Assembly (NCBI GenBank): GCA_016184305.1
Contig: JACPCX010000186.1
Span: forward strand, 1 to 28,608
DNA length: 28,608 nt
Origin: Candidatus Rokuibacteriota bacterium
Lineage (GTDB): Bacteria; Methylomirabilota; Methylomirabilia; Rokubacteriales; CSP1-6
Reading direction: 5' to 3'
The notes under the pieces: model-generated
The model's input: the letters and a program-made list of their open reading frames with translations, nothing else
Databases searched by the model: none
Told to the model about the DNA's origin: nothing
Part shown: one piece after another, positions 4,951-28,330 of the stretch
Layout: every line of letters starts with the position of its first letter
Position numbering within the stretch: the first letter of the stretch is position 1
Program-made: the position numbers and the translations under genes

Positions 4951-5098
4951 GAGCGGTATTGTCTCCTTCGTCCCGTCCCGTCGCGCTGAGGACAGGCGGT
5001 CACGACAGGAGCGCGCGATCCCCACGCGCTGCACCGGGTTGTCCCGGGAGCTGTCGGGAGCCTTCGTCTGTTTCATCACCCCCCCGCCCTCTGACGAG

Positions 5099-5132
5099 GA
5101 GATGGGGATCCCCCCGAGCGGAGCGAGGAGCT
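5099..5132 (+). repeat. dispersed intergenic repeat, copy 2
   Basis: ATCCCCCCGAGCGGAGCGAGGAGCT, matches 2619-2651. Confidence 0.7.
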
Positions 5133-5173
5133 GCCGCGCCGGCCGAGGCCCTCGCGCTACTATCGGGTCTGCC

Positions 5174-9095: not shown

Positions 9096-9596
9096 ATGTT
9101 CACGGGGGCGATGCGATCGCTGTATGGCGAGGAGCGAGAGCGGGGCTTCACCTTGGTCGAGCTACTGATCGTGATCCTGATCGTGGGGATCCTGGCGGCA
9201 GTGGCCGTGCCGCTCTACCTGGGCTACACGCAGGACGCCAGGAGCGCCGAGGGCAAAGCGCTGGCTGGCTCGGCCATGACTGCGCTGCAGGGCTGCGTGC
9301 AGGCGCGGGGCGGGGGGGGCAGCTGCACCCGGGCGGACGTCGCAGGGCGGATCGGGGTGAGCTCGGCGACCGGGTTGACGGGCGATACCCGCTGGACGGT
9401 GGGGACGGCGAGCCTGACGGTGAGCACGGCAGCGGTGCCCACCTTCTCGGGGACGATCAACGTCTTTGGGGTGGCGGCGCGGGACACGAACAACATCGCG
9501 ATGGCGATGTACCCGGGGACCTGGGGTGTGGAACTGAGATGCACGACGACCTCGCTGACGCCGCCACCCACCAGCACGTCTAACGAGCCCTGCTAG
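9096..9596 (+). CDS. pilA: type IV pilin (probable major pilin)
   Basis: Class III signal MFTGAMRSLYGEERERG|FTLVELLIVILIVGILAAVAVPLY (G-1, F1, E5); GGGAGG RBS at 9082-9087; 166 aa with four Cys; own sigma54 promoter and 3' hairpin. Confidence 0.93.
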   Translation: MFTGAMRSLYGEERERGFTLVELLIVILIVGILAAVAVPLYLGYTQDARSAEGKALAGSAMTALQGCVQARGGGGSCTRADVAGRIGVSSATGLTGDTRWTVGTASLTVSTAAVPTFSGTINVFGVAARDTNNIAMAMYPGTWGVELRCTTTSLTPPPTSTSNEPC

Positions 9597-11797: not shown

Positions 11798-11799
11798 GG

Positions 11800-13761
11800 A
11801 TGGGCGGGGAAGTGCTGGAGGCTGAGGGGGCCATGGGTCGCTCCTGGCCTCGCCGCGGCGACTCGGCGCTCGTCCTGCTCGTGACCGCTCTCGTCTTCCT
11901 CCCGGGCGTCTTCGGGGAGTTCGTCAACTGGGACGATGATCGGAATTTCCTGCAAAACCTCGACTATCGCGGCCTCGGCTGGGCCAACTTGCGCTGGATG
12001 CTCACGACGTCCCACATGGGCCCCTGGGCGCCGCTGAGCTGGGTCACCCTCGCCGCCGACTATCTCCTCTGGGGGATGAGCCCGCGCGGCTACCATGTCA
12101 CGAGCCTCCTCTTCCATTCGGCCAGCGCGGCGCTCTTCCTGCTGATCGCTCGCCGGCTGCTCCGGGCGGCGCAGCCCGGGGCGCCCGAGGGAGCGCTCAG
12201 GATCGGCGCCGTGGGCGCGGCCCTCCTGTTCGCGGTGCACCCGCTCAGGGTGGAGTCCGTCGTGTGGATCACCGAGCGCCGCGACGTGGTCTCCGGTTTC
12301 TTCTACATGCTCACCGTGCTCGCATACCTCAGGGCGGTGGAGGGGCGCCTGGCGGGAATGCGGCTCGGGGGGAGGTACTGGCTGAGCCTCGGCTGCTTCG
12401 CCGCGGCCGTGCTCTCCAAGTCCATGGTGGTGAGCCTCCCCGTGGTGCTCCTGATCCTCGACGTCTATCCGCTCGGGCGGCTCGGGGGCCGGGCGGGCTG
12501 GACCGGGGCGGCGGCCCGGCGGGTCCTGGCGGAGAAGATCCCGTTCCTCCTCGTGGCCGCCGCCGGGGCGGCGGTGGCGTTCCTGGCCCTCCGGCCCTGG
12601 GGCAACCTGCTCTCCCTCGGCGATTTCGGGCCGGCCCAGCGCGCCGCGGTATCGGTGTACGGCGTGGCGTTTTACCTGTGGAAGACGCTCGTGCCCATCG
12701 GCCTCTCGCCGCTCTACGCCCTGCCGCGCTCGGTGGACCCGCTCGCTCTCCCGTTTGTCTTCTCCGGAGTCGTCGTGCTGGCGCTGAGCGCCGCTGCGGT
12801 CATCATGCGGCGCCGCTGGCCCTGGCTCGCCGCCGCCTGGTCCGCGTATGTGGTCACGGCCCTGCCGGTGCTCGGGGTGTTCCAGAACGGGCCGCAGATC
12901 GCCGCGGACCGCTACACCTATCTCCCGGTGCTCGGATGGGCGCTCCTCGGCGGGGCGGGCCTCGCCCGCTGCGCCGGCCGGTGGATGGTCGGGGCGGCCG
13001 GCAGGCGCTCTGCCGGTGCCGTCCTGTCCGCCGCCGTCGCGCTGCTGATCGCGCTGGCGGCGCTCGCCGCGAGGCAGGCCCTCGTCTGGCAGGACTCGGT
13101 CACGCTCTGGCGCCACGCGGTGGCGCTCGATCCCGGGAGCGTCCGCTCCCGCGTGCACCTGGGCGGCGCGCTCATGGGAGCCGGGTGGCTCGAGCCCGCC
13201 ACCCGGCAGTTCGAGGCCGGGCTGCGGCTCGACCCCACCGACCCCGAGGCGCTCATCGGCCTGGCGGCGACCCTCGGGGCGTCGGGACGCGGCCAGGAGG
13301 CTGTGGCGCCCGCCACGGAAGCCGCGCGGCGGCGTCCGGGAGACGCCGAGATCCAGTACCATCTGGGTGAGGTGTTGAGGCTGGTGGGGCGCCGCGAGGA
13401 GGCCCTTGCGGCGTATCGCCAGTCAATGCGGTTCAGGCCTCGCTGGCCGGTTGGCGGTTATCGCGCGGCGACCACGCTGGCCGAGCTGGGGCGGACCGAG
13501 GAAGCCGTCGCCGCGCTCGCGGAGGCACAGCGGGTGGGGCGAGCCATCGATCCCGGCGATCCCGAGGCCGAGCGGGTCACCGCGCTGGTCTACGCGCGCT
13601 CGGATCCCATCCGCGCCATCGAGGCGTGGGAGCGCTACCTCTCGCTCATGGGTCGGCTCCCGGATCCGAGTCTGCCCGAGATGGCCAGGATGATGGAGGC
13701 CATGGTGTCTCTCGATGCCCTCCGCCGCCAGCAGGGCGCGCCCGCCGTGTCGCGCCCATGA
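11800..13761 (+). CDS. TMTC-like protein O-glycosyltransferase (GT-C plus TPRs), copy 2
   Basis: EFVNWDDDRNF, HPLRVESVVWITERRDVV, ADRYTYL and TPRs (FEAGLRLDPTDPEALIGLA); close tandem paralog of copy 1. Start ATG 11800 or 11833. Confidence 0.87.
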   Translation: MGGEVLEAEGAMGRSWPRRGDSALVLLVTALVFLPGVFGEFVNWDDDRNFLQNLDYRGLGWANLRWMLTTSHMGPWAPLSWVTLAADYLLWGMSPRGYHVTSLLFHSASAALFLLIARRLLRAAQPGAPEGALRIGAVGAALLFAVHPLRVESVVWITERRDVVSGFFYMLTVLAYLRAVEGRLAGMRLGGRYWLSLGCFAAAVLSKSMVVSLPVVLLILDVYPLGRLGGRAGWTGAAARRVLAEKIPFLLVAAAGAAVAFLALRPWGNLLSLGDFGPAQRAAVSVYGVAFYLWKTLVPIGLSPLYALPRSVDPLALPFVFSGVVVLALSAAAVIMRRRWPWLAAAWSAYVVTALPVLGVFQNGPQIAADRYTYLPVLGWALLGGAGLARCAGRWMVGAAGRRSAGAVLSAAVALLIALAALAARQALVWQDSVTLWRHAVALDPGSVRSRVHLGGALMGAGWLEPATRQFEAGLRLDPTDPEALIGLAATLGASGRGQEAVAPATEAARRRPGDAEIQYHLGEVLRLVGRREEALAAYRQSMRFRPRWPVGGYRAATTLAELGRTEEAVAALAEAQRVGRAIDPGDPEAERVTALVYARSDPIRAIEAWERYLSLMGRLPDPSLPEMARMMEAMVSLDALRRQQGAPAVSRP

Positions 13762-13768
13762 GCGCCGC

Positions 13769-15499
13769 GTGACGTCCCGGACCGGCCTGCTCCTGGGGCT
13801 GGCCACGGCCCTCTGCCTCGTCCCCTTCGCCGGCAAGGCCTTCCACGTGGATGACCCGCCTTTCTTGTGGGCCGCCCGTCAGATCCAGTCGCAGCCGACC
13901 GACTTCTACGGCTTCCGCCTCAACTGGTTCGGCGCCGAGCAGCCGATGTGGGAGGTGGCGACGAACCCGCCCCTGACCTCGTACTATCAGGCCGCGGCCG
14001 CCGCGCTGGCCGGCTGGAGCGAGAGGGCGCTCCACCTGGCGTTCCTCCTTCCCGCCCTCGCCGCCGTCCTCGGGACCTATGTCCTGGCCCGAGGGCTCTG
14101 TGCCCACCCGGCGCTCGCGGCGCTCCTGGCGCTCGTCAATCCCGCCTTCGTGGTGTCGAGCACGAGCGTGATGTCGGACATCATGCTCGTGGCCTTCTGG
14201 GTCTGGGCCGCGGCGCTCTGGGTGCGCGGGCTCGCGCGGGAGTCGCCCGCTACTCTCGCCGGCGCCGCCTGCCTCGTGGCGCTCGCCGCGCTCACCAAGT
14301 ACTACGGGGCAAGCCTCGTGCCCCTCCTCTTCGCCTACGGGCTGGCCGCACGCCGTCGCCCAGGCACATGGGCGCTCTGGCTCCTGCTCCCTCTCGGGGC
14401 GCTGGCGGCCTACCAGGGGGCGGCGCTTGGCCTCTACGGGCGTGGGCTCGTCTTCGACGCGGGATCGTATGCGGGCGCCTTCCGCTCCGCGATGGGCGTG
14501 CCGCTCTGGGCCAGGGGCGCCACGGCGCTGGCCTTCGCCGGCGGCGGCCTCGCGACGCTGGCGTTCCTTGCACCGTGGTGCTGGTCGCGCCGCGCCGTCG
14601 GCTACGCCTGTGCCGCCGCGGCTGCCGCCATGCTCGCCGTCGTCAGTGCGGGCAGCATCGGCGGCTTCCCGCTCGTCGAGGCGGGCGGTGTCCGCTGGGC
14701 CGTCGTCGTCCAGCTGGGCCTCTGGGGTCTCGGCGGGCTCACGGTCGTGGCGCTCGCCGCGGCGGACCTCTGGCATCGGCGCGACGCCGGCTCGCTCCTT
14801 CTCGGGCTATGGGTCCTCGGCACGCTCGCCTTCGCCGGCCTCATGAACTGGTCGGTCAACGCGCGCTCGATCCTGCCCATGGCCCCGGCGGCAGCGATCC
14901 TCCTCGCGCGCCGGCTCGAGCAGCGGGGCGCGCTCGCTCACGGGCGGCTCCGGTGGCCGCTGCTCTTGCCGCTGGCGGCAGGCGCCGCGCTGGCGCTCTG
15001 GGTCGCCGGGTCCGACTACAGCTTGGCGAACAGCGCGCGTCAGGCCGCCGCCGTGGTCCACCGGCTCTACGGCCGGGGGCCGGGTCCGCTCTGGTTCGAG
15101 GGACACTGGGGCTTCCAGTACTACATGGAGGCGGCGGGCGGCCGCTCCGTGGACTGGAACGGGGCGCGTCCTTCACCGGGGGAATGGCTCGTGGTCCCGG
15201 CCAACAACACCAACACCTTCCTCATGCCTCGCGGTGCCGTGTCGCTCCATCGGGTCGTGGAGGTGCCCTCGCCGGGTGTCATGGCGACCATGAACCGGTC
15301 GGTGGGCGCGGGGTTCTACTCGGATGTCTGGGGGCCGCTGCCCTTCGCTGTGGGCCGCGTGCCCCCGGAGCGCTACTACGTCTTCGTGGTCGGGGGCCGG
15401 GTCGAAACCCCGGCGCCCGCGTCACGCGGCTTGATGGGGGCGGTTACCGGCGGACCGGCCACGACGCCCCCCAGACCGGAAGGTCGCCTCCCCCGGTAG
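13769..15499 (+). CDS. PMT_2/ArnT-like (GT39/GT83-type) membrane glycosyltransferase
   Basis: HVDDPPF acidic loop after TM1, NPPLTSYY, SVMSDIM, ALAALTKYYG, NARSILP; many TM segments. GTG start at 13769, just after the upstream TGA. Confidence 0.8.
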   Translation: MTSRTGLLLGLATALCLVPFAGKAFHVDDPPFLWAARQIQSQPTDFYGFRLNWFGAEQPMWEVATNPPLTSYYQAAAAALAGWSERALHLAFLLPALAAVLGTYVLARGLCAHPALAALLALVNPAFVVSSTSVMSDIMLVAFWVWAAALWVRGLARESPATLAGAACLVALAALTKYYGASLVPLLFAYGLAARRRPGTWALWLLLPLGALAAYQGAALGLYGRGLVFDAGSYAGAFRSAMGVPLWARGATALAFAGGGLATLAFLAPWCWSRRAVGYACAAAAAAMLAVVSAGSIGGFPLVEAGGVRWAVVVQLGLWGLGGLTVVALAAADLWHRRDAGSLLLGLWVLGTLAFAGLMNWSVNARSILPMAPAAAILLARRLEQRGALAHGRLRWPLLLPLAAGAALALWVAGSDYSLANSARQAAAVVHRLYGRGPGPLWFEGHWGFQYYMEAAGGRSVDWNGARPSPGEWLVVPANNTNTFLMPRGAVSLHRVVEVPSPGVMATMNRSVGAGFYSDVWGPLPFAVGRVPPERYYVFVVGGRVETPAPASRGLMGAVTGGPATTPPRPEGRLPR

Positions 15500-15515: not shown

Positions 15516-17407
15516 TCACTGCCTTCGCCAGATGGCCCCGTTCCACCAGAAGATGTGCTTCCGGTCATGCGAGACGGTGCCGGAGACATTCCAGCGCTTC
15601 GCCGACACGACGCCGTCCTGGATCACGCCCTCGGATTGGGCCCCTGTCTGACTGACGAGGACGAGGGCTTCCCCCTCCGCGCGGCGCACGAAGGCCGGTC
15701 CGCCGCCGGTCTCCCACACGCCCAGGATGTCCTGGACCTGCGCGCGCTCGTCGACGCACGAGATCTCCAGCACGCGCCCGCCCCGCGTCGCGATCGTCTC
15801 GCGATTGAGGTTCCACGAGGTGGCCGGGAACAGGATGTCCAGGAAGTGCGGGGTGTCGACCCGCTGCCTCAGGTAGGGCGCGAACCACGGGAGCGGCGCG
15901 TTGCCCGGACACGTCCGGGACACCCTGAAATAGACGTCCCCCTGATTCCGCTCGTGCCAGCGCTCGGCGTGATAGAGCAGCTCGAGTCGGGGCGCCGCGT
16001 AGAGGTGGCGCTGGTCGGACAGCAACGACGCGGTCTCGACCGCGTTGACGAGCGCCAGCCCGCACAGCCCGGCGACGAAGAGCCGCCGGCAGGTCGTCCT
16101 CGCCGCCCCGTGCCGCCCGACTTCCCGGTCGCCGTCCCCGACCAGAGCGCGAGCGCATGCACCACGAAGACGCCCAGGATGGCGATGTAGGCGTAGTTCA
16201 GATTCTGCAGCATGTAGGACGCGGGGCGCGGGAGCAAGCGTCCGAACGAGACGATGGACGCGTAGGCCAGGACGAAGGCATAGCCCGGAGCGAGCCGGCC
16301 GAGGCCCGCGAGGCCGCAGCGTTGCCACCACGGGAGGATCAGGCCTGCTCCGCCGATGGCGGCGGCGCCCACGCTCGCCACGTTGCCCAGAAGCCACGGG
16401 CCGCCGGGCCGCCTGAAGCCCAGGAACAGGACCCTGTTGCCGGCCGCGAGCTGGTACACGGGGGGCAGGAGGGCCCCGCCGAGCCAGAAATACAGCCCGG
16501 AGACCGCCAGGGTCAGTCCGCCGAGGACGTCGACCGAGGCGCTCGCCCGGAGGTCCGAGGCCTGGACACTCCCCAGGCGGGCGAAGAAGTCGATCGGGCT
16601 GACGGTCTTGTACAGGACAGGGACCAGGGCGAGCATCGTCGCGAGCCGGACGCGCCCCCTCACGCCGCGGGGATCGGGCGGGAGTGCGTGGTCCCGCGTC
16701 GTTCGCTTCCAGCGGATCGCAGAAGCCAGCGACGCCAGTGCGGCGAGGAGGGAGTACACGCTCCCGAGCTCATAGGTGAACGCCGCGCCGATCGCGAGCA
16801 GCACCGACGTGTCGGCCGCGCGTGGACGGTCAGTCTCGAGGTAGTCGAGGAGGAAGGAGAGCGAAAGACTGGCCAGCACCGTGAAGAGGATGTAGCCGGT
16901 GATGTGGTGCCAGACTACCATCTCGGAGGAGATGAGCAGGCTCGAGAAGAGCCCCGCGACGACCAGGTTCGCCGCCGGGGTTCGCGGGGAGGCTCTCCCG
17001 AGGAGTCCGTACAGCAACACCGACTGCGCGGCGTGAAGGGCGATGCCGGCAGCCTGCCAGAGGACGAAGCTCGGGCCGAAGAGGATCTGCTGCACGGCCA
17101 GGAAGAGGTAGAGGAAGGGCCGGAACAGGATGTGATCGCCGATGGAGACGGTGCGGTTCCACGAGGGCGAGTACCCGAGGATCTCGAGCGCGCTGTCAAA
17201 CTGGCTGGCTTCGTAGAGGTGGACGAGCTGGTCCCATCGCGGGACGCCCCAGAGGCCATCGCGGTACACGACCGCGACGAAGAGGCCGAGGAGAACTCGG
17301 GGACACTGGGGGTGTGTCACGAGCCTTTGCAGTCGTGGTCGGAGGGCTATCACCAGCGCTCCGGCGCCGCTTGGCGGGGTCCCGCGTCCGTTGACGTCAG
17401 AACGCAT
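15516..17407 (-). pseudogene. paralog of the 2804..4669 membrane protein, split by a single frameshift near 16095-16140 (pseudogene or sequencing error)
   Basis: 5' part (ATG 17407; YRDGLWGVPRWDQLVHLYEASQF, SWNRTVSIGDHILFRPF) and 3' part in another frame (APRLELLYHAERWH, CPGNAPLPWFAPY, SHDRKHIFWWNGAIWRR) align colinearly with the intact paralog. Confidence 0.8.
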
Positions 17408-19703: not shown

Positions 19704-19754
19704 GGCGCGGGCATGGCCGCCCCGCCTACGGTGGCGAGGCTGGCGCGGTTGCGG

Positions 19755-20465
19755 CTACGGCCTCCAGAAATACACCTCGCGCAGCGTCTGCAGCAGGTAG
19801 GCGGCGCCCCAGCGGAACATCTGGAGCTTGCGCTGCCCGCCGATGCGCGCGGGCTCGTCGGCGGGGATCTCGGACACCGTGAGCCGCTTCTTGGCGGCGC
19901 GGATGGAGAGGAGCGGCTCCACGCCGATCACGGTCCCCAGGAGCTTCTCCGGCGCATAGCCCTCGTCGCGGTCCAGCCCGAGGTCCCGGAAGAGCGTGGT
20001 CCGGTACGCGCGGAACATCACGAAGGCGTCGGTGTAGCGGCCGCCGTGGAGGAGGTTGATCAGCCGGGTGAACCCCCAGTTGCCGAGCGCCGTCAGGACG
20101 TCGTCGTCCTGGCTCCGCGCGGAGGCGAGGTAGCGCGAGGCGATGACCATGTCGGCGCCAGCGGCCATCGCGCGGACGAGATCGGGGATCGCCGAGGGCA
20201 GCGAGTTGCCGTCGGGGCTGAAGGTGACGACGATCTCACCGCGCACATGCGGGAAGGCCTCGACGTACGCGTTCCGGATGCCGGGCTTCTGCTGGACGAT
20301 CAGGTCGTAGCCGTGCTCCCTGGCGTACTCTTGCGTCCCGTCCGTGGAGCCGCCGTCCACGACCAGGATCTGGTCGCACCAGCCATGCTGGATCTGCGGC
20401 ATGATCTGGCGCATGCCCTCGATCTCGTTGTAGGTGGGGACGAGGAGCGTCACCGAGGGTCTCAT
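19755..20465 (-). CDS. GT2-family glycosyltransferase, DPM1-like (polyprenyl-phosphate sugar synthase)
   Basis: LLVPTYNE, VVDGGSTDGT, DMVIASRY, GNWGFT, YTDA...FRA, EIPADEPARIGG. Start ATG 20465. The DXD position reads FSPDGNS. Confidence 0.88.
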   Translation of the reverse strand: MRPSVTLLVPTYNEIEGMRQIMPQIQHGWCDQILVVDGGSTDGTQEYAREHGYDLIVQQKPGIRNAYVEAFPHVRGEIVVTFSPDGNSLPSAIPDLVRAMAAGADMVIASRYLASARSQDDDVLTALGNWGFTRLINLLHGGRYTDAFVMFRAYRTTLFRDLGLDRDEGYAPEKLLGTVIGVEPLLSIRAAKKRLTVSEIPADEPARIGGQRKLQMFRWGAAYLLQTLREVYFWRP

Positions 20466-20634
20466 CCCTGCAGGTTCCCCCGCAAATGGAGGCTCGGCGG
20501 GCGTCGCGGGCGCTCGCCGGTCATGGGCGCCGCTGTCAGAGATCCGCTCGAAAAGTCTGGCAAATTCCGCACCGCCCGTATCGTACAATACCGGGCAAAT
20601 GGCACCTACGAAAAGTCGCTGAGGCCGAAGGCTC

Positions 20635-21618
20635 TTGGACCTCCCCTTGCAACGTTCAGGCCTCGTGGACCCCGCGATGATGGCGCGGCTCTATCGCTCG
20701 GTCCGGCGCATTCGCCGGGTGGAGGAGGAGATCGCCCGCCTCTATCCCACCGATCGGATCAAGAGCCCGGTGCACCTGTCCATCGGCCAGGAGGCCGTGA
20801 GCGTCGGTCTCTGCGAGGCCCTCCGCCCCGACGACGTCGTCTTCGGCACCTACCGCGGCCACGCGCTCTACCTCGCCAAGGGCGGTGACCTCCGGCGGAT
20901 GATGGCGGAGCTGTACGGCAAGGCGACGGGTTGCGCCCGGGGCAAGGGCGGCTCCATGCACCTCATCGACGTGGCTCACGGTGTCATGGGCGCCTCCGCG
21001 GTGGTCGGGAGCACGATCCCCCAGGCGGTGGGCTACGCCTACGCGTGCAAGGTGAGGGGCCAGGAGGCCCTGGTGGCCAGCGTCTTCGGCGACGGGGCCG
21101 TGGAGGAGGGCGTCTTCCACGAGAGCATCCAGTTCGCGGTGCTCAAGGCCCTCCCCGTTCTGTTCGTCTGCGAGAACAACTTCTACGCGATCCACACCCC
21201 GCTGGCCGAGCGCCAGCCCTTCGACAATATCTGCGAGCGCGCGCGGAGCTACGGCCTGCCCGCCGCGCGCCTCGAGGCCGATGACGTCCTCCGCGTCCAC
21301 GAGCGCATGGCGGAGGCGGTGCACCACATCCGGCGCCAGAGGGCCGGGCCGCAATTCCTCGAGTGCCGGACCTATCGCTGGCGGGAGCACGTGGGGCCCG
21401 GCGAGGACTTCGACCTGGGCTATCGGTCGCGCGAGGAGGCCGCGGCCTGGATGGAGCGGGACTCCTGCGTCCGGCTGGGCGCGCTCCTCGACGAGCCCGC
21501 GCGCGCGCGCATCGATGCCGCGATCGAGGCCGAGATCGAGGACGCCGTACGCTTCGCCGAGGCGAGCCCCTTCCCGGGACCGGAGGAGCTGCACGCCGAC
21601 CTGTTCAGGGAGGCCTGA
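20635..21618 (+). CDS. TPP-dependent dehydrogenase E1 alpha-like subunit (sugar-pathway associated)
   Basis: HLSIGQEA, TYRGH, GKGGSMH, TPP motif GDGAVEEGVFHES...CENN, TYRWREHVG. Start TTG 20635 or ATG 20677. Confidence 0.92.
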   Translation: MDLPLQRSGLVDPAMMARLYRSVRRIRRVEEEIARLYPTDRIKSPVHLSIGQEAVSVGLCEALRPDDVVFGTYRGHALYLAKGGDLRRMMAELYGKATGCARGKGGSMHLIDVAHGVMGASAVVGSTIPQAVGYAYACKVRGQEALVASVFGDGAVEEGVFHESIQFAVLKALPVLFVCENNFYAIHTPLAERQPFDNICERARSYGLPAARLEADDVLRVHERMAEAVHHIRRQRAGPQFLECRTYRWREHVGPGEDFDLGYRSREEAAAWMERDSCVRLGALLDEPARARIDAAIEAEIEDAVRFAEASPFPGPEELHADLFREA

Positions 21619-21621
21619 GCC

Positions 21622-22686
21622 GTGGAGCGCAGGCTCACCTACGCCGAGGCGATCCGCGAGGCCACGCTCCAGGAGATGGACCGCGACCCGTCGGTCGTGG
21701 TCATGGGGCTCGGCGTCGAGGACCCGAAGCCCATCTACGGCACGACGCGGGGACTCGCCGAGCGCTTCGGCGCGGATCGCGTGTTCAACACCCCGCTCGC
21801 CGAGGAGGGGATGACGGGCGTGGCCATCGGGGCGGCGCTGGCGGGCTTGCGCCCCATCCACGTGCATATCCGGATGGACTTCGTGCTGCTCGCCATGAAT
21901 CAGCTCGTCAACATCGCCGCCAAGAGCCGCTACATGTCCGGCGGGGCCGTGTCGGTGCCCATCGTCGTGCGCTCGATCATCGGGAAGAGCTGGGGGCAGG
22001 GGGCGCAGCATTCCCAGGGGCTCCACGCGCTCTTCATGCACATCCCGGGCCTCAAGGTCGTGGCGCCCTCGACGCCCTACGATGCCAAGGGCACGCTGAT
22101 CCAGAGCATCCGCGACGACAACCCCGTCATGTTCGTGGAGCACCGGCTCCTCCATGGCGTGACGGGGCCCGTGCCCGAGATCCCGTACACGGTGCCATTC
22201 GGGCGGGCCCGGGTGCTGGCCGAGGGCGACGACGTGACCATCGTCGGGATCTCCCACATGGCCATCGAGGCGCTTCGCGCGCGCGCGCACCTGGAGCGCG
22301 CGGGCATCGGGGCCGAGGTGATCGATCCCGTGTCCCTGAGCCCGCTCGACATGGACAGCATCGAGGTCTCGCTGCGGAAGACCGGACGCCTCCTCGTGGT
22401 GGACTGCGGGTGGACCACCTGCGGCGCCTCGGCCGAGATCGCGGTCCAGAGCATGGAGCGGCTCCAGGGGGCGCGCGATCTCCGCATCCGCCGGCTCGGG
22501 TTCGCCCCCGTGGCCTGTCCGACGACCAGGCCGCTGGAGGATCTCTTCTACCCCGACGCGCGGCGCATCGCCTCGGCCGCCTATGCCCTCGTCCACGACA
22601 AGCCCGAGCTGTGGGAGCCGCCGGAGGCGTCGGACGAGGCTGGCGCTCCCGGGCCGGCGGACATCGAGTTCAAGGGGCCCTTCTGA
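21622..22686 (+). CDS. TPP-dependent dehydrogenase E1 beta-like subunit (transketolase C-terminal domains)
   Basis: LTYAEAIREA, RVFNTPLAEEGMTGVAIGAA, GQGAQHSQ, PGLKVVAPSTPYDAKG, DNPVMFVEHRLL, KTGRLLVVD. Confidence 0.92.
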   Translation: MERRLTYAEAIREATLQEMDRDPSVVVMGLGVEDPKPIYGTTRGLAERFGADRVFNTPLAEEGMTGVAIGAALAGLRPIHVHIRMDFVLLAMNQLVNIAAKSRYMSGGAVSVPIVVRSIIGKSWGQGAQHSQGLHALFMHIPGLKVVAPSTPYDAKGTLIQSIRDDNPVMFVEHRLLHGVTGPVPEIPYTVPFGRARVLAEGDDVTIVGISHMAIEALRARAHLERAGIGAEVIDPVSLSPLDMDSIEVSLRKTGRLLVVDCGWTTCGASAEIAVQSMERLQGARDLRIRRLGFAPVACPTTRPLEDLFYPDARRIASAAYALVHDKPELWEPPEASDEAGAPGPADIEFKGPF

Positions 22687-22687
22687 C

Positions 22688-23887
22688 ATGGCGCTGCGCT
22701 ACCGGCTGGCGGACGGCACCATCGACCGGCACGACGTCGAGCTGCTCATCGAGTGGCTCAAGACCGACCCGTGGCTCACGATGGGCCCGCTCACGGAGGA
22801 GTTCGAGGGGCGCTGGACGCGCTGGCTGGGCGTGCCGCACGCGGCCTTCGTCAACTCGGGCTCCTCGGCCAATCTCCTCATGTACTACGCCGCCCTCTGC
22901 TCGGGCCGGCTGCGGAATCTGCGCGTGGTCGTGCCGGCCGTCTCCTGGGCGACGACCGTGGCGCCGGCGCTCCAACTCGGCTTCGAGCCGATCATGTGCG
23001 AGGCGGACCGTGACACCTTCGGCCTCGATCCGGCGCACCTCGAGGCTCTCTGCAAGGCGCATGATCCCGCGGCGGTGATCCTCGTCCACGTCCTCGGCGT
23101 GCCCGTGGACCTGGAGCCGATCATGCGCCTCAAGGAGCGCTACGGGTTCCTCCTGATGGAGGACTGCTGCGCCGCCACGGGCTCCCGCTACGATGGGCGC
23201 CCGGTGGGCACGTTCGGCGAGATGAGCGCGTTCTCGTTCTACTTCGGCCACCACCTCTCCACCATCGAGGGCGGCATGGTCTGCACCGGGGACGAGGCGC
23301 TCCACGACATCCTCCTGCAGATCCGCAGCCACGGCTGGCCCAAGAACCTCTCGCCGGAGAAGGAGGCGCTGCAGGCGCGGAAGCACGGGGTCCTCGAGTT
23401 CAACCGCCGCTTCACCTTCTACTATCCCGGCTTCAACGTCCGCTCCACCGATCTCAACGCGCGCATCGGCCTCAGCCAGCTGGCCCGGGCGGACCGCGTC
23501 GTCGCCCGTCGCATCGACAATCACGCGGCCTACCTGTCGCGCTTCGCCGGGGCCCGCGGCTTCACGTGCCAGCGGAACCCGCGGGCGACCATCTGCAGCA
23601 TCTCGTTCGTGGCGCTGGCCGCCTCGCTCGAGCACCGGGACCGGATCGGACGGGCGCTGGAGGCCCACGGCATCGAGACGCGCCCGCTGGGCGGGGGGAA
23701 CATGTCGCGCCAGCCGTTCTGGGTGGAGCGCTACGGCGCGCAGCCCTTCCCGGTGGCCGACGAGATCCACGAGCGGAGCTTCATGCTACCGAACCATCCG
23801 GGGCTCACCGTGGACGACATCGACCGCATCGCCGACGTCGTCCTGGCCGTGCCGGGGTCAGGTCTTGCAATCCAACATTTGTCGTAA
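22688..23887 (+). CDS. DegT/DnrJ-fold PLP enzyme, ColD-type NDP-4-keto-6-deoxy-sugar 3-dehydratase
   Basis: FVNSGSSANL, VPAVSWATT, EDCC; SFYFGHHLSTIEGG has His where aminotransferases have the Schiff-base Lys; RSHGW and PGFNVR as in ColD. ATG 22688. Confidence 0.85.
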   Translation: MALRYRLADGTIDRHDVELLIEWLKTDPWLTMGPLTEEFEGRWTRWLGVPHAAFVNSGSSANLLMYYAALCSGRLRNLRVVVPAVSWATTVAPALQLGFEPIMCEADRDTFGLDPAHLEALCKAHDPAAVILVHVLGVPVDLEPIMRLKERYGFLLMEDCCAATGSRYDGRPVGTFGEMSAFSFYFGHHLSTIEGGMVCTGDEALHDILLQIRSHGWPKNLSPEKEALQARKHGVLEFNRRFTFYYPGFNVRSTDLNARIGLSQLARADRVVARRIDNHAAYLSRFAGARGFTCQRNPRATICSISFVALAASLEHRDRIGRALEAHGIETRPLGGGNMSRQPFWVERYGAQPFPVADEIHERSFMLPNHPGLTVDDIDRIADVVLAVPGSGLAIQHLS

Positions 23888-23907
23888 TGCAAGACCTGAC
23901 CCCGGCA
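23850..23907. repeat. REP/REPIN-like perfect inverted repeat, copy 1
   Basis: TGCCGGGGTCAGGTCTTGCA (23850-23869), 18-nt spacer, TGCAAGACCTGACCCCGGCA (23888-23907). Confidence 0.9.
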
Positions 23908-24839
23908 TGAGGATCCTGGTCACGGGCGGGGCAGGATATATCGGCGCGGTGCTGGTGCCGCTGCTTCTCCGCGAGGGCCATGAGGTCACCGTCATCGACA
24001 GCTTCATGTACGGACAGGCCTCGCTGCTCGATTGCTGCCACGAGCCGCGCCTCACCATCGTCCGTGGTGATGCCAGGGACCGGACGCTGGTGGCCGAGCA
24101 CCTGCGCGAGGCGGAGGCGATCCTGCCGCTGGCCTGTCTCACGGGCGCGCCGGCCTGCGACCGTGATCCGGTGGCCGCGCGCACGGTGAACCTAGAGGCC
24201 GTCCTGATGATCCTCGAGATGAAGCGCGCCGAGCAGCGGATGATCTTCCCCAACACGAACAGCGGCTACGGGGTCGGCGAGCGGGATGTCTTCTGCACCG
24301 AGGAGACTCCGCTCCAACCGGTGTCCCTCTACGGCCGGCTCAAGGTCGAGGCCGAGCGCGCGGTGCTGGCGGCGCCCAGCACCATCGCTCTCCGGCTGGC
24401 GACGGTGTTCGGCGTGAGCCCCCGCATGCGGCTGGACCTGCTGGTGAACGACTTCACGTACCGCGCCGTCACCGACGGGTTCGTGGTCCTCTTCGAGGGG
24501 AACTTCAAGCGCAACTACGTCCACGTCCGGGACGTGGCCCGCGCCGTCAGCCATTGCCTCGGCCACTGGGAACGCATGCGCGGGCAAGCCTACAACGTGG
24601 GGCTCAGCGAGGCGAACCTGTCCAAGCGCGAATTGTGCGAGGCCATCCGCAAGCAGGTGCCGCGCTTCTCCTGGCAGGAGGCCGCCGTGGGCCGGGACCC
24701 GGACCAGCGCAACTACATCGTGAGCAACGCGAAGATCGAGGCCACAGGCTTCCGGGCCGAGGTGTCCCTCGAGGCCGGCATCGCGGAGCTGATCAAGGGC
24801 TACCAGGTGGTCCGCCGCCAGGGCTACGCCAATGTCTGA
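23907..24839 (+). CDS. NAD-dependent epimerase/dehydratase/reductase (extended SDR)
   Basis: MRILVTGGAGYIG, catalytic YGRLK (YxxxK), LRLATVFGVSPRMRLDLLVNDF, RNYVHVRDVA, YNVG. Confidence 0.92.
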   Translation: MRILVTGGAGYIGAVLVPLLLREGHEVTVIDSFMYGQASLLDCCHEPRLTIVRGDARDRTLVAEHLREAEAILPLACLTGAPACDRDPVAARTVNLEAVLMILEMKRAEQRMIFPNTNSGYGVGERDVFCTEETPLQPVSLYGRLKVEAERAVLAAPSTIALRLATVFGVSPRMRLDLLVNDFTYRAVTDGFVVLFEGNFKRNYVHVRDVARAVSHCLGHWERMRGQAYNVGLSEANLSKRELCEAIRKQVPRFSWQEAAVGRDPDQRNYIVSNAKIEATGFRAEVSLEAGIAELIKGYQVVRRQGYANV

Positions 24840-26304
24840 TCGGGGCCGCCTCGACCTGGTGCTCGTCCAGCCCGGCAGCCGCATGGAGGTGTACCAGCGC
24901 CTCGGCTCGACGCTGACCGCCATCGAGCCGCCCGTGTGGGCGGGACTCATGGCGACCTTCGCGCGCGCCCGGGGCTACTTGGTGGAGATCGTGGACGCCG
25001 AGGCCGACGATCTCGCGCCCGCCGAGGCGGCCGGGCGGATCGCGGACCTCGGGCCGCGGCTGGCCGTCGTCGTGGTCTTCGGCCACCAGCCGTCGGCCTC
25101 TACTCAGACCATGCCGGCGGCCGGCGCCGTCTGCGCCGCGCTCCGGCAGCGCGCGCCCGGCATTCCGACCCTCCTCGTTGGCGGGCACGTCTCGGCGCTC
25201 CCCGAGCGCACGCTCAGGGACGAGGCATGCGACTTCGTGTGCCAGGGCGAGGGGCCGCACACGATCGTGGGCCTGCTCGAGGCGCTGAGCTCCGGCGGCG
25301 GCCACGACCGGGTCCCGGGGCTCTGGTGGCTGGACGGCGGCGAGATCCGCTCCACGCCCCCGGCCCCGCTCCTGGACAACCTGGACCGCGACCTGCCGCG
25401 GATGGCGTGGGACCTCCTGCCCGTGCCGAAGTATCGGGCCCATAACTGGCACTGCTTCGGCGCCCTCGACCGGCGCCAGCCCTACGCCTCGATCTACACG
25501 AGCCTCGGCTGCCCCTTCAAGTGCACGTTCTGCTGCATCAACTCGCCCTTTGGCAAGCCCGGCTACCGCTACCGCGGTGCCGGCAGCGTCATCGAGGAGA
25601 TCGACCTGCTGGTCTCGAAGTACGGCGTGCGGAACATCAAGATCCTGGACGAGATGTTCGTGCTCAACTACCAGCACGTGGAGAGCGTCTGCGACCGGAT
25701 CATCGAGCGCGGGCACGACCTGAACATCTGGGCCTATGCCCGCGTGGACACCGTGAAGGAGCGCATCCTCGACCGGCTCAAGCGCGCGGGGATCAACTGG
25801 CTGGCGCTGGGGATCGAGTCCGGCAGCCAGCATGTCCGCGACGGCGCGCTCAAGAAGTTCGGGCACGCCGACATCGCCGCCACGGTCCGCGCCATCCAGG
25901 CCGCCGGGATCAACGTCATCGGCAACTACATCTTCGGCCTCCCGGACGACGACCACGACACGATGCAGGCCACGCTGGACCTGGCCTGCGAGCTCAACTG
26001 CGAGTTCGCCAACTTCTACTCGGCCATGGCCTATCCAGGCTCGCGGCTCTACGACATGGCGCTCGAGGAAGGGTGGCCGCTGCCCGCGACCTGGAGCGGC
26101 TACTCGCAGCACTCGGTGGACACGCTGCCGCTGCCGACGAAGTTCGTCTCGGCGGCCGACGTCCTGCGCTTCCGCGACCGCGCTTTCGAGATCTACTTCA
26201 ACCGGCCGGAGTACCTGCGGATGGTGGAGCGGAAGTTCGGCCCCGGGACCGTCGCGCATGTGCGCGAGATGGCAAGCCACCGCCTCGATCGCACGCATGC
26301 GTAG
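24832..26304 (+). CDS. cobalamin-binding radical SAM protein (class B methyltransferase-like)
   Basis: N-terminal B12-binding domain (EPPVWAGLMA, GGHVSALPE, GEG); CPFKCTFC (CxxxCxxC); GIESGS; YIFGLP. Confidence 0.92.
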   Translation: MSDRGRLDLVLVQPGSRMEVYQRLGSTLTAIEPPVWAGLMATFARARGYLVEIVDAEADDLAPAEAAGRIADLGPRLAVVVVFGHQPSASTQTMPAAGAVCAALRQRAPGIPTLLVGGHVSALPERTLRDEACDFVCQGEGPHTIVGLLEALSSGGGHDRVPGLWWLDGGEIRSTPPAPLLDNLDRDLPRMAWDLLPVPKYRAHNWHCFGALDRRQPYASIYTSLGCPFKCTFCCINSPFGKPGYRYRGAGSVIEEIDLLVSKYGVRNIKILDEMFVLNYQHVESVCDRIIERGHDLNIWAYARVDTVKERILDRLKRAGINWLALGIESGSQHVRDGALKKFGHADIAATVRAIQAAGINVIGNYIFGLPDDDHDTMQATLDLACELNCEFANFYSAMAYPGSRLYDMALEEGWPLPATWSGYSQHSVDTLPLPTKFVSAADVLRFRDRAFEIYFNRPEYLRMVERKFGPGTVAHVREMASHRLDRTHA

Positions 26305-26325
26305 CGAGGTGAGGAGGGGGAAGCG

Positions 26326-27333
26326 ATGATCATCAGCCGGACGCCGTTCCGCGTCTCGTTCTTCGGCGGGGGCACCGACTACCCGGTCTGGTTCCGCGAG
26401 CACGGCGGCGCGGTGCTGGCCACCACGATCAACAAGTACTGCTACATCTCCTGCCGCTACCTGCCGCCCTTCTTCAGCCACAAGAGCCGCGTGGTCTGGT
26501 CGCAGATCGAGCTGGTCCAGGAGCGCGAGGAGATCCAGCACCCGGTGGTGCGCGAGGCCCTGGGCGTCCTCGGCGTCACCGAAGGCATCGAGCTCCACCA
26601 CCAGGGCGACCTCCCGGCCCGCACGGGCCTCGGCTCCAGCAGCGCCTTCACCGTGGGCGTCCTCAACGCGCTACACGGGCTGCGCGGGGTCATGGCGGGC
26701 AAGGAGCGGCTCGCCCGCGAGGCGATCCTGATCGAGCAGGAGCGGCTGAAGGAGCATGTCGGCTGCCAGGACCAGGTCATCGCCGCCTACGGCGGCTTCA
26801 ACCGCGTCGACTTCTGGGGCGAGGGCCAGTTCCGCACCTCGCCCATCATGATCACCTGGGAGCGGCTCAACGAGCTCCAGGATCACCTGATGCTCTTCTT
26901 CACCGGGCTCTCGCGTACCGCCTCCGACATCGCCGCGGAGCAGGTCAGCGTGTCCCCGCAGAAGGCGCGCGAGCTGCGGGTGATGCATCAGATGGTGGAC
27001 GAGGCGGTCAACATCCTGAAAAGCCCGCACGGCCTCGGCGACTTCGGCAAGCTGCTGGACGAGGGCTGGCAGCTCAAGCGGAGCCTCACCGGCCGGATCT
27101 CCACGCCCTATATCGACGAGCTCTACGAGCGGGCGCGGCGGGGCGGCTGCACGGGCGGCAAGCTCATCGGCGCCGGCGGCGGCGGCTTCCTCCTGCTCTT
27201 CGCCCCGCCGGAGTCGCAAGCGGATGTCGCCGCGGCGCTCGGCGGGCTTCTCCAGGTGCCCTTCCGCTTCGAGTCCGTCGGCAGCCACGTGATCTTCTAC
27301 GAGCGGCCGGACCTGCCTCCCGGACGGCTGTAG
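26326..27333 (+). CDS. hddA: GHMP kinase, D-glycero-D-manno-heptose-7-phosphate kinase-like
   Basis: SRTPFRVSFFGGGTDYP, DLPARTGLGSSS, VGCQDQ..AAYGGFN, GGKLIGAGGGGFLL; GAGGAGG RBS. Confidence 0.88.
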   Translation: MIISRTPFRVSFFGGGTDYPVWFREHGGAVLATTINKYCYISCRYLPPFFSHKSRVVWSQIELVQEREEIQHPVVREALGVLGVTEGIELHHQGDLPARTGLGSSSAFTVGVLNALHGLRGVMAGKERLAREAILIEQERLKEHVGCQDQVIAAYGGFNRVDFWGEGQFRTSPIMITWERLNELQDHLMLFFTGLSRTASDIAAEQVSVSPQKARELRVMHQMVDEAVNILKSPHGLGDFGKLLDEGWQLKRSLTGRISTPYIDELYERARRGGCTGGKLIGAGGGGFLLLFAPPESQADVAAALGGLLQVPFRFESVGSHVIFYERPDLPPGRL

Positions 27334-27343
27334 GGCCCCCGCG

Positions 27344-28330
27344 GTGACGCGTCCGGAGCGGTCGTTCCAGCGAGTGCTCATCACCGGCATCGGCGGGTCC
27401 GGCGGGAGCTATCTCGCCGAGCACATCGTCGAGAGCCACCCCGAGGTCGAGGTGCACGGGCTCTCCCGCTGGCACAGCACCACGCGGAACAACCTCGCCC
27501 GCATCATCGAGCGGGTGACGGTGCACGAGGCCGACCTGCGCGACTTCGGCTCCACCTTCGCGGTGCTCCGCGAGGTGAGGCCCGAGGCGATCTTCCACCT
27601 GGCGGCCCACGCCAACGTGCGCGCATCGTTCGTGACGCCGAGCGCCGTGCTCGCCGACAACATCCTGGGCACGAATCACCTCCTCGAGGCCGTGCGGCTC
27701 CTGGGCCTCGACCCGACGATCCAGCTCTGCAGCACCTCCGAGGTGTACGGCGTGGTGGACCCCGCGCGGTTGCCCATCGACGAGGACACGCCCATGCGCC
27801 CGGCGAGCCCCTACGCCGTCTCCAAGGCGGCGCAGGACATGCTGGGCTGGAGCTACTTCCTGAGCTACGGGATGCGCATCATCCGCACGCGGATGTTCAC
27901 CTACCTCAACCCGCGGCGCGCCGATCTCTTCGCCACGGCCTTCGCGCGCCAGGTGGCGCGCATCGAGCGGGGGCTCCAGGCGGAACTGCTGCACGGCAAC
28001 CTGGACTCCGTCCGCACCATGCTCGACGTGCGGGACGCCATGCGCGCGTACTGGGAGGCGCTCGGCCACTGCGAGCCCGGGGAGGCCTACAATATCGGCG
28101 GCGCAACCACCATGACGGTGGGCGGCGTGCTGGCCCGCCTCGTGGCGCTGGCCGACACGCCGATCCCGACGCGGCTCGACCCGCGCCTCCTGCGCCCGGC
28201 GGATGTGACGCTGCAGATCCCGAACGTGGACAAGTTCGTCAAGGCCACGGGCTGGCAGCCGCGCCACCCCTTCGAGGAGAGCCTGGCGTATCTGCTCGCG
28301 CATTGGCGGGCCGAGGTCGCCCGCGAATAG
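27344..28330 (+). CDS. GDP-sugar 4,6-dehydratase, Gmd/DmhA-like (possibly GDP-manno-heptose dehydratase)
   Basis: VLITGIGGSGGSYLAE, IFHLAA, CSTSEVYG, ASPYAVSK, TRMFTYLNPRR, GNLDSVRTMLDVRDAMRAY, LRPADV. Confidence 0.85.
   Translation: MTRPERSFQRVLITGIGGSGGSYLAEHIVESHPEVEVHGLSRWHSTTRNNLARIIERVTVHEADLRDFGSTFAVLREVRPEAIFHLAAHANVRASFVTPSAVLADNILGTNHLLEAVRLLGLDPTIQLCSTSEVYGVVDPARLPIDEDTPMRPASPYAVSKAAQDMLGWSYFLSYGMRIIRTRMFTYLNPRRADLFATAFARQVARIERGLQAELLHGNLDSVRTMLDVRDAMRAYWEALGHCEPGEAYNIGGATTMTVGGVLARLVALADTPIPTRLDPRLLRPADVTLQIPNVDKFVKATGWQPRHPFEESLAYLLAHWRAEVARE

Follow-up and report, generated by a model that had tools for sequence, protein, structure and literature searches.

Which sugar is built by an operon that combines a two-subunit thiamine diphosphate (ThDP) enzyme, a sugar 3-dehydratase and a B12-binding radical S-adenosylmethionine (SAM) enzyme with a heptose-type kinase, and where is this sugar delivered? 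The question is raised by seven genes at positions 20,635 to 28,330 of a 28,608-nucleotide contig of a Candidatus Rokuibacteriota bacterium (JACPCX010000186.1), referred to below as the window. The genes code for E1-alpha and E1-beta subunits, a DegT-family 3-dehydratase (DegT), an extended short-chain dehydrogenase/reductase (SDR1), the radical SAM enzyme (rSAM), a GHMP kinase and a second extended SDR (SDR2) (Table 1). We give an even chance to the reading that the operon represents, in Rokubacteria, a cassette shared by many phyla, the product of which is a modified heptose destined for the cell surface. The operon is a novel form of the acyl-branched-sugar pathways, widespread and uncharacterised.

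The gene set recurs around the radical SAM gene in many phyla

An alignment scan with the rSAM protein, restricted to one genome per species, gave at least 553 confirmed stretches among the 600 matches listed, and 80 of them were kept. Open reading frames (ORFs) were called in all kept loci and clustered, and hidden Markov models (HMMs) of the cassette proteins were built from the clusters. Locus counts are based on 79 loci, as L002 was left out because its contig ends within the rSAM ORF. Loci with at least 8 kb on both sides of the rSAM gene (n=39) are referred to as full loci. A hand count from the record titles of the 80 kept loci gave about 18 phylum-level groups: Rokubacteria, Myxococcota, Verrucomicrobiota, Cyanobacteria, Poribacteria, Nitrospirae, Nitrospinota, Binatia, Omnitrophota, Alpha-, Beta-, Gamma- and Deltaproteobacteria, Chloroflexi, Acidobacteriota, Planctomycetota, Patescibacteria, Elusimicrobiota and Spirochaetes.

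The kinase and any ThDP enzyme were each present in 34 of the 39 full loci, DegT and SDR1 each in 31, an HddC-like nucleotidyltransferase and either of two companion SDRs each in 29, and a family-2 glycosyltransferase (GT2) in 16. ThDP enzyme, DegT, SDR1 and kinase were found jointly in 26/39. The initial annotation of the window, made from the sequence alone, had tied its proposal to a co-occurrence of these genes in other genomes, and the gene set does recur. The same set around the rSAM gene in other phyla places the arrangement far beyond chance. The proposed branched-heptose sugar is not peculiar to this genome, and the cassette extends across the phylum-level groups named above.

Two kinds of ORF clusters were left out of these counts. 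The cluster 'unk295', whose representative (L006:10678-11565) overlaps the rSAM gene, was judged to be a shadow frame, and the antisense ORF clusters 4, 9, 12, 13, 19 and 25 were judged likewise.

Unrelated ThDP enzymes occupy one slot

The strongest evidence for the E1 pair as a sugar-branching carboligase is non-orthologous displacement in the ThDP slot. E1-alpha/beta was found in 50 of the 79 loci, a split transketolase (TK) in 11, both in one and a minimal PP+Pyr pair in two. The remaining 15 have none of these, and many of them are short fragments. The minimal pair, found in L014 (Herbaspirillum lusitanum) and L026, consists of a 199-aa PP domain and a 178-aa Pyr domain. One of the loci counted as 'none' (L025) harbors a 610-aa enzyme resembling acetolactate synthase and YerE directly upstream of DegT. 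This enzyme matched the PDB entries 8rph (338 bits) and 5ahk (304 bits), which we take to be the YerE-like enzymes JanthE and PpYerE, whereas true acetolactate synthases reached at most 231 bits. All 31 DegT-bearing full loci also contain a ThDP enzyme.

The available part of a 2025 review names DC (YerE-like), alpha-KADH2 and split TK as the ThDP superfamilies for which keto-sugar branching is known or has been proposed (PMC12247030). E1, split TK and YerE-like enzymes interchange in one slot of the cassette, which supports the initially proposed ThDP-dependent two-carbon (C2) branch on a 4-keto sugar. From sequence, the E1 pair would be a carboligase adding C2 to a 3-deoxy-4-keto sugar. Moreover, no E2 or E3 gene was found among the 20 other window ORFs scanned or among the 112 ORFs embedded in the loci, and a two-subunit E1 without E2/E3 beside deoxy-keto-sugar enzymes characterises the alpha-KADH2 branching class.

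Two other readings would make the E1 pair a conventional E1 of a 2-oxoacid or acetoin dehydrogenase, or place the operon in an avilamycin-type antibiotic cluster. The former is suggested by the best NCBIfam names of the pair, pyruvate dehydrogenase (PDH) E1 alpha and beta, and the latter by the precedents, since the alpha-KADH2 and TK branching cases covered in the accessible text of the review come mainly from antibiotic clusters and other secondary metabolism (PMC12247030). However, neither subunit reached the PDH cut-offs. E1-alpha scored 291.7 bits against TIGR03182 (cut-off 393.85) and 507.7 bits against the E1a HMM of the cassette; E1-beta scored 299.3 bits against NF006667 (cut-off 321) and 289.6 against a second model (cut-off 454). 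Furthermore, the window ORFs scanned include neither E2/E3 nor a polyketide synthase or nonribosomal peptide synthetase, other loci fill this slot with TK, the minimal pair or a YerE-like enzyme instead, and the neighbours are GT2, GT-C and TPR membrane proteins, rml genes, flippases and ABC exporters. Both versions are barely credible to us.

Kinase and SDR1 point to a heptose nucleotide

The four best PDB matches of the kinase were heptose kinases (3k85, 138.9 bits; 4usk/4usm, approx. 131 bits; 4n3o, 116.5 bits). Against the HddA model NF049969 it scored 133.7 bits and did not reach the cut-off of 600. As the initial annotation had stated, gmhA, gmhB and hddC are absent from the window: its ORFs of at least 90 aa gave no match to the SIS/GmhA, HAD/GmhB or nucleotidyltransferase HMMs of the cassette. 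For the proposed route, GmhA-, GmhB- and HddC-like genes would have to be located elsewhere in the source genome. In the related loci, a nucleotidyltransferase was found in 44, SIS/GmhA in 19 and HAD/GmhB in 15 of 79. The cluster representatives scored 213 bits against the GmhA model NF010546, 154 against the GmhB model NF006506 and 154 against the HddC model NF049965, the latter being the best NCBIfam match of the nucleotidyltransferase.

SDR1 aligned end to end with PDB entry 6vo6 (residues 16-323 with 4-311; 377 bits, 6.3e-112), which we take to be Cj1427, the GDP-heptose C4 dehydrogenase. By this similarity, SDR1 is likely a Cj1427-like, NAD-dependent GDP-heptose C4 dehydrogenase, which makes the 4-keto group without removal of O6. 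The initial annotation had given this SDR no part in 4-keto formation and has to be corrected here. If SDR1 introduces the 4-keto group, as is likely, the pathway can do without a 4,6-dehydratase and may retain the 6-OH.

An FAD-dependent L-2-hydroxyglutarate oxidase (533 bits, cut-off 299) was present in 10/79 loci, in six of these ten at most 300 nt from SDR1; none was detected among the window ORFs scanned. Tightly bound NADH of Cj1427 is described as being re-oxidised by alpha-ketoglutarate in a ping-pong reaction yielding L-2-hydroxyglutarate (PMC10680097, available part), and an oxidase beside SDR1 fits this type of recycling. Taken together, the kinase relatives, the GmhA-, GmhB- and HddC-like genes of the related loci and the SDR1 match support the heptose-nucleotide origin put forward initially.

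DegT is more likely a ColD-type than an iron-sulfur 3-dehydratase

The best solved relatives of DegT were ColD (2gms, 178.6 bits) and the CDP-sugar E1 dehydrase 3bcx (166.6 bits). The window protein reads GHH where ColD has SHH, and the histidine column was fixed by the ColD mutant entries H188N and H188K (3b8x, 2r0t), which differ from the wild type at this position. The 'His-type' assignment of this pyridoxal phosphate (PLP) enzyme was thus correct. Histidine occupies the column of the PLP-binding lysine in all 52 cassette DegT proteins, which supports ColD-type 3-deoxygenation. The motif C-x-C-x(5-9)-C, the Fe-S site of E1-type (RfbH/AscC) 3-dehydratases, was found in 0/52 cassette DegT proteins, and no E3-reductase-like partner gene was seen among the window ORFs scanned. 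The missing cysteine motif and reductase partner favor the ColD subtype over the E1 subtype. In vitro, Cj1427 together with a ColD-like PLP C3-dehydratase forms GDP-D-glycero-3-deoxy-4-keto-heptose, as reported in the available part of PMC10680097, which gives m/z 616.08 (negative mode) for the 3-deoxy-4-keto sugar.

SDR2 and the fate of O6

SDR2 matched the reductase Rmd (2pk3, 206 bits), DmhA (7us5, 183.9 bits) and Gmd (1db3, 138 bits) and scored 130.8 bits against TIGR01472 (cut-off 415). Its initial description as a DmhA/Gmd-like dehydratase holds for the Gmd/Rmd/DmhA group but was too confident about the dehydratase, because a reductase is the best solved relative. True orthologues (>500 bits) are rare. 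They were found in four sources among the 39 full loci and the window, namely the window, L008, L029 and L050. In the window, L008 and the partial locus L011, SDR2 stands alongside SDR1 and replaces the usual GDP-fucose-synthase-like SDR. In L008 it takes the gene position that this SDR has in other loci. The replacement beside SDR1 suggests a reductase. In contrast, L029 and L050 carry SDR2 without SDR1, which suggests a 4-keto-forming dehydratase and fits the 6-deoxy route of the initial annotation. On sequence, SDR2 could be either a 4-keto (or branch) reductase or a 4,6-dehydratase.

If SDR2 were a DmhA-type GDP-heptose 4,6-dehydratase, the product would be a 3,6-dideoxy-4-C-branched heptose, i.e. 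an analogue of yersiniose with an extra methyl group added by rSAM. The loci lacking SDR1 are expected when SDR2 supplies the 4-keto group. SDR2 also shares its T-S-E and P-R-R motifs with the 7us5 and Gmd entries, while two Rmd reductases read P-G-Q, and C. jejuni makes 3,6-dideoxyheptoses via a 4,6-dehydratase route (available part of PMC10680097). However, the SDR1 retained in the window, L008 and L011 makes a dehydratase redundant as 4-keto generator. The gene position in L008, the co-presence of SDR2 and the GDP-fucose-synthase-like SDR in one source only (of 7 and 39), the low number of orthologues and the closer match to a reductase argue in the same direction, and the methyl step would have to be performed by a protein whose nearest relatives, HpnJ and AprD4, are not methylases. 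This product is possible but unlikely. Of the product proposed initially, the heptose origin, the 3-deoxygenation and the C4 branching are supported, whereas 6-deoxygenation and methylation are uncertain.

A conserved B12 radical SAM enzyme coupled to DegT

rSAM is the most conserved gene of the cassette, with 54-66% identity across phyla; its closest named homologues are from metagenome-assembled genomes of Candidatus Rokubacteria (89% identity). The cysteines of the CxxxCxxC motif (C227, C231 and C234) are invariant in 25 sequences, and matches to PF02310 (55.6 bits) and PF04055 (60.1 bits) give the protein a class B architecture. The best NCBIfam match was HpnJ with 161.7 bits, far below the cut-off of 577.6, and the other listed matches also remained far below their cut-offs. 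The best PDB match was the diol dehydratase AprD4 (6fd2, 61.3 bits). A Protein Atlas search with rSAM returned generic B12/radical SAM clusters only.

The rSAM gene directly follows DegT in 22/79 loci and has the kinase as its downstream neighbour in 20/79. In three fusion proteins (P0241, P0247 and P0249; 909-948 aa), an N-terminal His-type DegT is joined to a C-terminal B12 rSAM. Fusions and adjacency indicate that the DegT and rSAM steps are coupled. A predicted complex of the DegT and rSAM proteins of the window (alignments A3 and A4; score 0.00, mark 0.32) is evidence neither way.

GenK and Fom3 are cobalamin-dependent radical SAM C-methylases. Because of this precedent methylation is the simplest guess for rSAM, and C-methylation of an unactivated carbon is our leading guess for its reaction.

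Three observations on the protein family were made in passing. Intein-type domains (Hint, intein splicing, LAGLIDADG) were found inside 26 of 33 longer rSAM homologues (P0242-P0271), and the family is a frequent intein host. The C-terminal extension of P0250, which lacks a Pfam domain and resembles read-through, was disregarded. In one of the nearest Atlas clusters, Uroviricota was the commonest known phylum (phylum known for 15/76 members), and phage-assigned contigs may carry rSAM.

Proposed route and alternative radical reactions

From these assignments we infer the following substrates and order of steps. Activated heptose would be supplied by the kinase of the window together with the GmhA-, GmhB- and HddC-like genes elsewhere in the genome. 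SDR1 would oxidise C4 in the manner of Cj1427 and be recycled with alpha-ketoglutarate, releasing L-2-hydroxyglutarate. DegT would remove the C3 hydroxyl ColD-style, with PLP and glutamate and without an E3, to give GDP-3-deoxy-4-keto-heptose. The stand-alone E1-alpha/beta, modelled on YerE and the alpha-KADH2 enzymes, would decarboxylate pyruvate and place the C2 unit onto the C4 ketone, resulting in a tertiary alcohol with an acetyl branch. rSAM would contribute one further radical step, most probably the methylation named above. SDR2 may reduce the leftover keto group or, alternatively, give 6-deoxygenation. Finally, GT2 would load the finished sugar onto polyprenyl phosphate, and GT-C-type membrane proteins would use it outside the membrane.

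Several observations weigh against this route. All NCBIfam matches of the seven operon proteins lie below the curated equivalog cut-offs, so that no operon protein is a proven orthologue. Of the four heptose-supply genes the window has the kinase alone, and the identity of 6vo6 with Cj1427 is presumed. The companion SDR of most loci is GDP-fucose-synthase-like (406 bits), i.e. C4-reductase-like; if it reduces C4 itself, C4 is not the branch point. Five of the 39 full loci (L004, L005, L033, L036 and L068) contain the rSAM gene without DegT and without any ThDP enzyme, and the rSAM step may thus be independent of the branch. The dehydratase-type motifs of SDR2, its occurrence without SDR1 and the lack of methylases among the nearest rSAM relatives have to be added to this side.

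The five loci without a branching module bear on the reaction of rSAM. It might carry out a branch-independent radical step on the heptose nucleotide, with an epimerisation and an AprD4-like dehydration of the C6/C7 diol as candidates, after which the SDRs would finish the sugar. Consistent with this idea, L033 and L005 combine rSAM, SDR1 and GT2 without the DegT/ThDP module, the best solved relative of rSAM is a diol dehydratase, and PMC9978623 refers to AbmJ, a radical SAM enzyme that epimerises a heptose at C3. However, the likeness to AprD4 is weak and the B12-binding domain of rSAM is conserved. Moreover, the fusions and the adjacency described above tie rSAM to the 3-dehydratase step. 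We consider such a step distinctly unlikely.

Alternatively, rSAM could act as a cyclase, in which a C7 radical attacks the branch carbonyl and closes a cyclopentane, yielding a caryose-type 4,8-cyclo-3,9-dideoxy-nonose. The carbons would fit caryose: seven from the heptose plus two from the branch give nine, with a 3-deoxy position, a pyruvate-derived terminal methyl group and tertiary C4 and C8. The Cj1427-type oxidase of the cassette keeps the C6/C7 diol. In its available part, PMC9092360 gives the structure of caryose, calls its biosynthesis unknown and presents HpnJ and calditol synthase as radical SAM enzymes proposed to form cyclopentanes; HpnJ is the best NCBIfam match of rSAM. On the other side, the HpnJ score is far below the cut-off, five full loci have the rSAM gene but neither DegT nor any ThDP enzyme, and the conserved reductase-like SDR would be left without a role. 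No Burkholderia/Trinickia caryophylli, the caryose producer, was seen among the few named rows of the 120 Herbaspirillum rSAM homologues listed, which is a weak test. A cyclase is highly improbable. If the ring version were true, a long-unknown route to carbocyclic lipopolysaccharide (LPS) sugars would be identified, and such sugars would be widespread in Bacteria instead of being a curiosity of one plant pathogen.

The most far-reaching reading is a sugar class so far undescribed in these phyla, namely a GDP-heptose-derived, 3-deoxy, C4-acyl-branched higher sugar with a C-C bond newly formed by rSAM. This bond would either close a caryose-like cyclopentane between branch carbonyl and heptose side chain or lengthen the side chain through C-methylation of a carbinol carbon. 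As a whole, this reading is quite improbable. Bradyrhizose was rejected as product. Its candidate cluster in Bradyrhizobium is centred on a dTDP-glucose 4,6-dehydratase, and the available part of the report mentions no radical SAM enzyme or transketolase (PMC4743980).

A lipid-phosphate sugar donor and the cell surface

GT2a, a soluble glycosyltransferase, is encoded divergently from the operon (Table 1); its ORF could extend to 20588. Its best NCBIfam matches were AglJ and dolichyl-phosphate hexose transferase, all below cut-off. At E<=1e-5, all four PDB matches were Dol-P-Man synthase or ArnC, and no transmembrane (TM)-like segment was found in the protein. Orthologues of GT2a were present in 15 loci (289-341 bits). 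The full loci with a GT2 gene code either for GT2a or for the PgfS/ArnC-like GT2b (16/39), never for both. This conserved polyprenyl-phosphate-type GT2 argues for a cell-surface glycan rather than an antibiotic.

Upstream of the operon, the window further encodes a YfhO-like and a PMT_2 membrane protein as well as several more polytopic membrane proteins, including two TPR-tailed paralogues. The TPR-tailed pair matched each other with approx. 697 bits in phmmer, the ORFs as called overlap by 292 nt, and relatives of these proteins adjoin the operon in L002. Related loci also contain DedA/VTT, LPG_synthase_TM, PMT_2, YfhO, flippase, ABC-exporter, rml and further glycosyltransferase genes. The setting points to a surface glycan with a lipid-phosphate sugar donor, not to an antibiotic cluster.

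GT2a and GT2b resemble ArnC, PgfS, AglJ and Dol-P-Man synthase, and PMT_2 and YfhO proteins lie near the cassette, as in the known polyprenyl-phosphate routes (ArnC/ArnT, GtrB, PgfS, and Dol-P-Man synthase with PMT/YfhO). Unlike in these routes, the cargo of the cassette would be a modified heptose.

Two individual loci deserve mention. In one Verrucomicrobiota locus (L004:4066-8595), the rSAM-GT2a pair adjoins a GT4 gene and three genes for type II/IV secretion (pilus) ATPases, which hints at pili as one possible acceptor of the sugar. In Herbaspirillum lusitanum (L014) the cassette lies among rml-type genes, i.e. two to three SDRs, an RmlA-like protein and RmlC (4884-9587, 18995-21362), together with a GT1-type transferase and a methyltransferase, which makes up an O-antigen or exopolysaccharide-type locus. 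Literature on the polysaccharide of this species yielded nothing on such a cassette.

Relation to known branched-sugar pathways

The closest pathway logic is that of yersiniose A from Yersinia pseudotuberculosis (YerE, YerF) and of the related ErwE and MMAR_2332 acyl-branched sugars. YerE joins pyruvate to CDP-3,6-dideoxy-4-keto-glucose and the NAD(P)H reductase YerF acts afterwards (PMC9306805, available part). An NDP-3-deoxy-4-keto sugar, ThDP-dependent acyl transfer to its C4 ketone and a subsequent NAD(P)H reductase are common to that pathway, as far as this source describes it, and to the route proposed for the cassette, and the cassette locus L025 even has a YerE-like enzyme. In contrast to yersiniose, the cassette would build on a heptose, and related loci contain a nucleotidyltransferase of the GDP type. 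Its 4-keto group would come from a Cj1427-like dehydrogenase instead of a 4,6-dehydratase, and its 3-deoxygenation would be of the ColD type, not the E1/E3 type. Moreover, the ThDP enzyme of the window is a two-subunit E1, a B12 radical SAM enzyme is added and delivery apparently proceeds via polyprenyl phosphate.

The heptose part resembles the capsular GDP-heptose enzymes of C. jejuni (Cj1427/MlghA, DmhA, the HS:5 C3 dehydratase and Cj1428-type reductases). SDR1 matches this set through 6vo6 (377 bits), and for the kinase and SDR2 the closest or nearly closest solved structures also come from it. Unlike the cassette, the enzyme list in the available part of PMC10680097 includes no ThDP or radical SAM enzyme, and the products given are unbranched heptoses.

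The alpha-KADH2 enzymes of aldgamycin, kosinostatin, kibdelomycin (KbDH-alpha/beta) and avilamycin biosynthesis and the split TKs proposed for miharamycin and amipurimycin share the architecture of the cassette enzymes, i.e. a stand-alone E1-alpha/beta or split TK beside keto-sugar enzymes. In vitro, KbDH-alpha/beta joins pyruvate to ketones that resemble sugars (both statements from the available part of PMC12247030). Unlike the cassette with its surface-glycan context, these antibiotic systems belong to secondary-metabolite clusters of actinomycetes and act on hexose or pentose nucleotides. In the available text of the review, the 13 predicted split TKs are from Streptomycetes only, whereas those of the cassette occur in loci titled Nitrospirae, Legionellaceae, Patescibacteria, Verrucomicrobia and Proteobacteria (PMC12247030).

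The cobalamin radical SAM sugar enzymes GenK and Fom3 and also HpnJ have the same N-terminal B12-binding domain and CxxxCxxC core as rSAM. Unlike HpnJ and the other curated radical SAM families, rSAM forms a separate, conserved family that reaches no cut-off.

A literature search for such a cassette, or for GDP-heptose linked to a radical SAM or ThDP enzyme, found no report. The combination of GDP-D-glycero and radical SAM led to septacidin and not to such a cassette. A survey by Krug et al. from 2024, reportedly a bioinformatic survey of branching ThDP enzymes, may overlap. So far, acyl-branched deoxysugars have been described in a small number of LPS structures and antibiotics. In the cassette, this branching chemistry would act on a heptose scaffold and be combined with a conserved step of a B12 radical SAM enzyme. 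The cassette marker is present in the species-level genome stretches counted above, most of whose carriers are uncultured (Herbaspirillum lusitanum, L014, and the cyanobacterium Floridaenema fluviatile, L007, are cultured ones), and the product would be an abundant envelope sugar never seen chemically. The cassette also represents a natural experiment, in which four unrelated ThDP architectures do one job.

Operon layout, gene calls and repeats

All seven families of the initial annotation were found by Pfam and NCBIfam at the positions given for them on the plus strand. The intergenic distances are 3, 1, 19, -8 (overlap ATGTCTGA), 21 and 10 nt, and the genes are accordingly tightly coupled, as had been claimed. 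Two gene starts were corrected: DegT starts at the ATG 22688 instead of 22583, in agreement with the ColD alignment, and SDR1 at the ATG 23907 instead of 23865, in agreement with the 6vo6 alignment. In the GC-rich window (0.62-0.75 per kb), a coding filter based on the GC content of third codon positions (GC3) was passed by six of the seven operon genes (GC3 0.89-0.95). SDR1 (23865-24839) was not listed by this filter, yet it is the protein with the 6.3e-112 match to a solved structure. An Rfam scan of the whole window gave 0 matches, and a promoter/terminator scan of 20300-20800 gave 0 sites.

Table 1. Genes of the operon, inverted repeats and further genes of the window with their positions and the supporting matches
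Feature	Position	Strand	Evidence
E1-alpha ThDP subunit (alpha-KADH2 type)	20635..21618	+	Pfam E1_dh PF00676 2.2e-61
E1-beta ThDP subunit	21622..22686	+	Transket_pyr 6.3e-34, Transketolase_C 2.3e-26
DegT, His-type PLP/pyridoxamine phosphate sugar 3-dehydratase, ColD type	22688..23887	+	DegT_DnrJ_EryC1 5.2e-77
SDR1, extended SDR	23907..24839	+	Epimerase/GDP_Man_Dehyd 1.5e-31
rSAM, B12-binding radical SAM enzyme	24832..26304	+	B12-binding 5.9e-15, Radical_SAM 3.8e-16
GHMP sugar kinase, HddA/WcbL heptose-kinase group	26326..27333	+	GHMP_kinases_N 1.5e-13, GHMP_kinases_C 7.8e-11
SDR2, extended SDR, Gmd/Rmd/DmhA group	27344..28330	+	GDP_Man_Dehyd 8.4e-63
20-bp hairpin, first GGGGTCAGGTCTTGCA pair (arms 23854-23903)	23850..23908	+	fold -42.7 kcal/mol, z = -9.4
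Second GGGGTCAGGTCTTGCA inverted pair, directly after SDR2 stop	28330..28467		fold -74.3 kcal/mol, z = -5.3
GT2a, soluble 236-aa family-2 glycosyltransferase, divergent from operon	19755..20465	-	Glycos_transf_2 2.3e-16
YfhO-like polytopic membrane protein, candidate GT-C user of polyprenyl-phosphate sugar	5039..8113	+	YfhO 5.5e-13; 12 TM-like segments
PMT_2 (ArnT/PMT-like GT-C) membrane glycosyltransferase	13715..15499	+	PMT_2 3.2e-13; 8 TM-like segments
Two paralogous polytopic proteins with C-terminal TPR	9758-11797, 11506-13761	+	9 and 7 TM-like segments
HtrA/DegP-like serine protease, left window end, unrelated to operon	1408-2565	-	Trypsin_2 + PDZ

The 16-nt repeat GGGGTCAGGTCTTGCA occurs in four copies in the window (0.02 expected), which form two inverted-repeat pairs. 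The hairpin of the first pair crosses the stop codon of DegT, abuts the SDR1 start and holds the last approx. 11 codons of DegT. The arms of the second pair are 106 nt apart. The repeat looks like a REP- or MITE-like element, or like a regulatory or stabilising hairpin inside the operon. A single copy is located 3' of SDR2 in the related Rokubacteria locus L002 (3573-3588).

In a 95%-identical Rokubacteria relative (L001), an extra ORF with a DUF1016 N-terminal domain (9.5e-26) lies at the DegT/SDR1 junction (624-1292). Homology to the window restarts precisely at the SDR1 ATG past this inserted ORF. The junction seems to be an insertion hot spot.

Among the remaining membrane protein genes of the window, a second paralogous large pair (2804-4897 and 15869-17824) matched each other with 256 bits and belongs to no Pfam family. 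A short ORF at 8118-8918 repeats the C-terminal part of the adjacent YfhO-like protein (85 bits).

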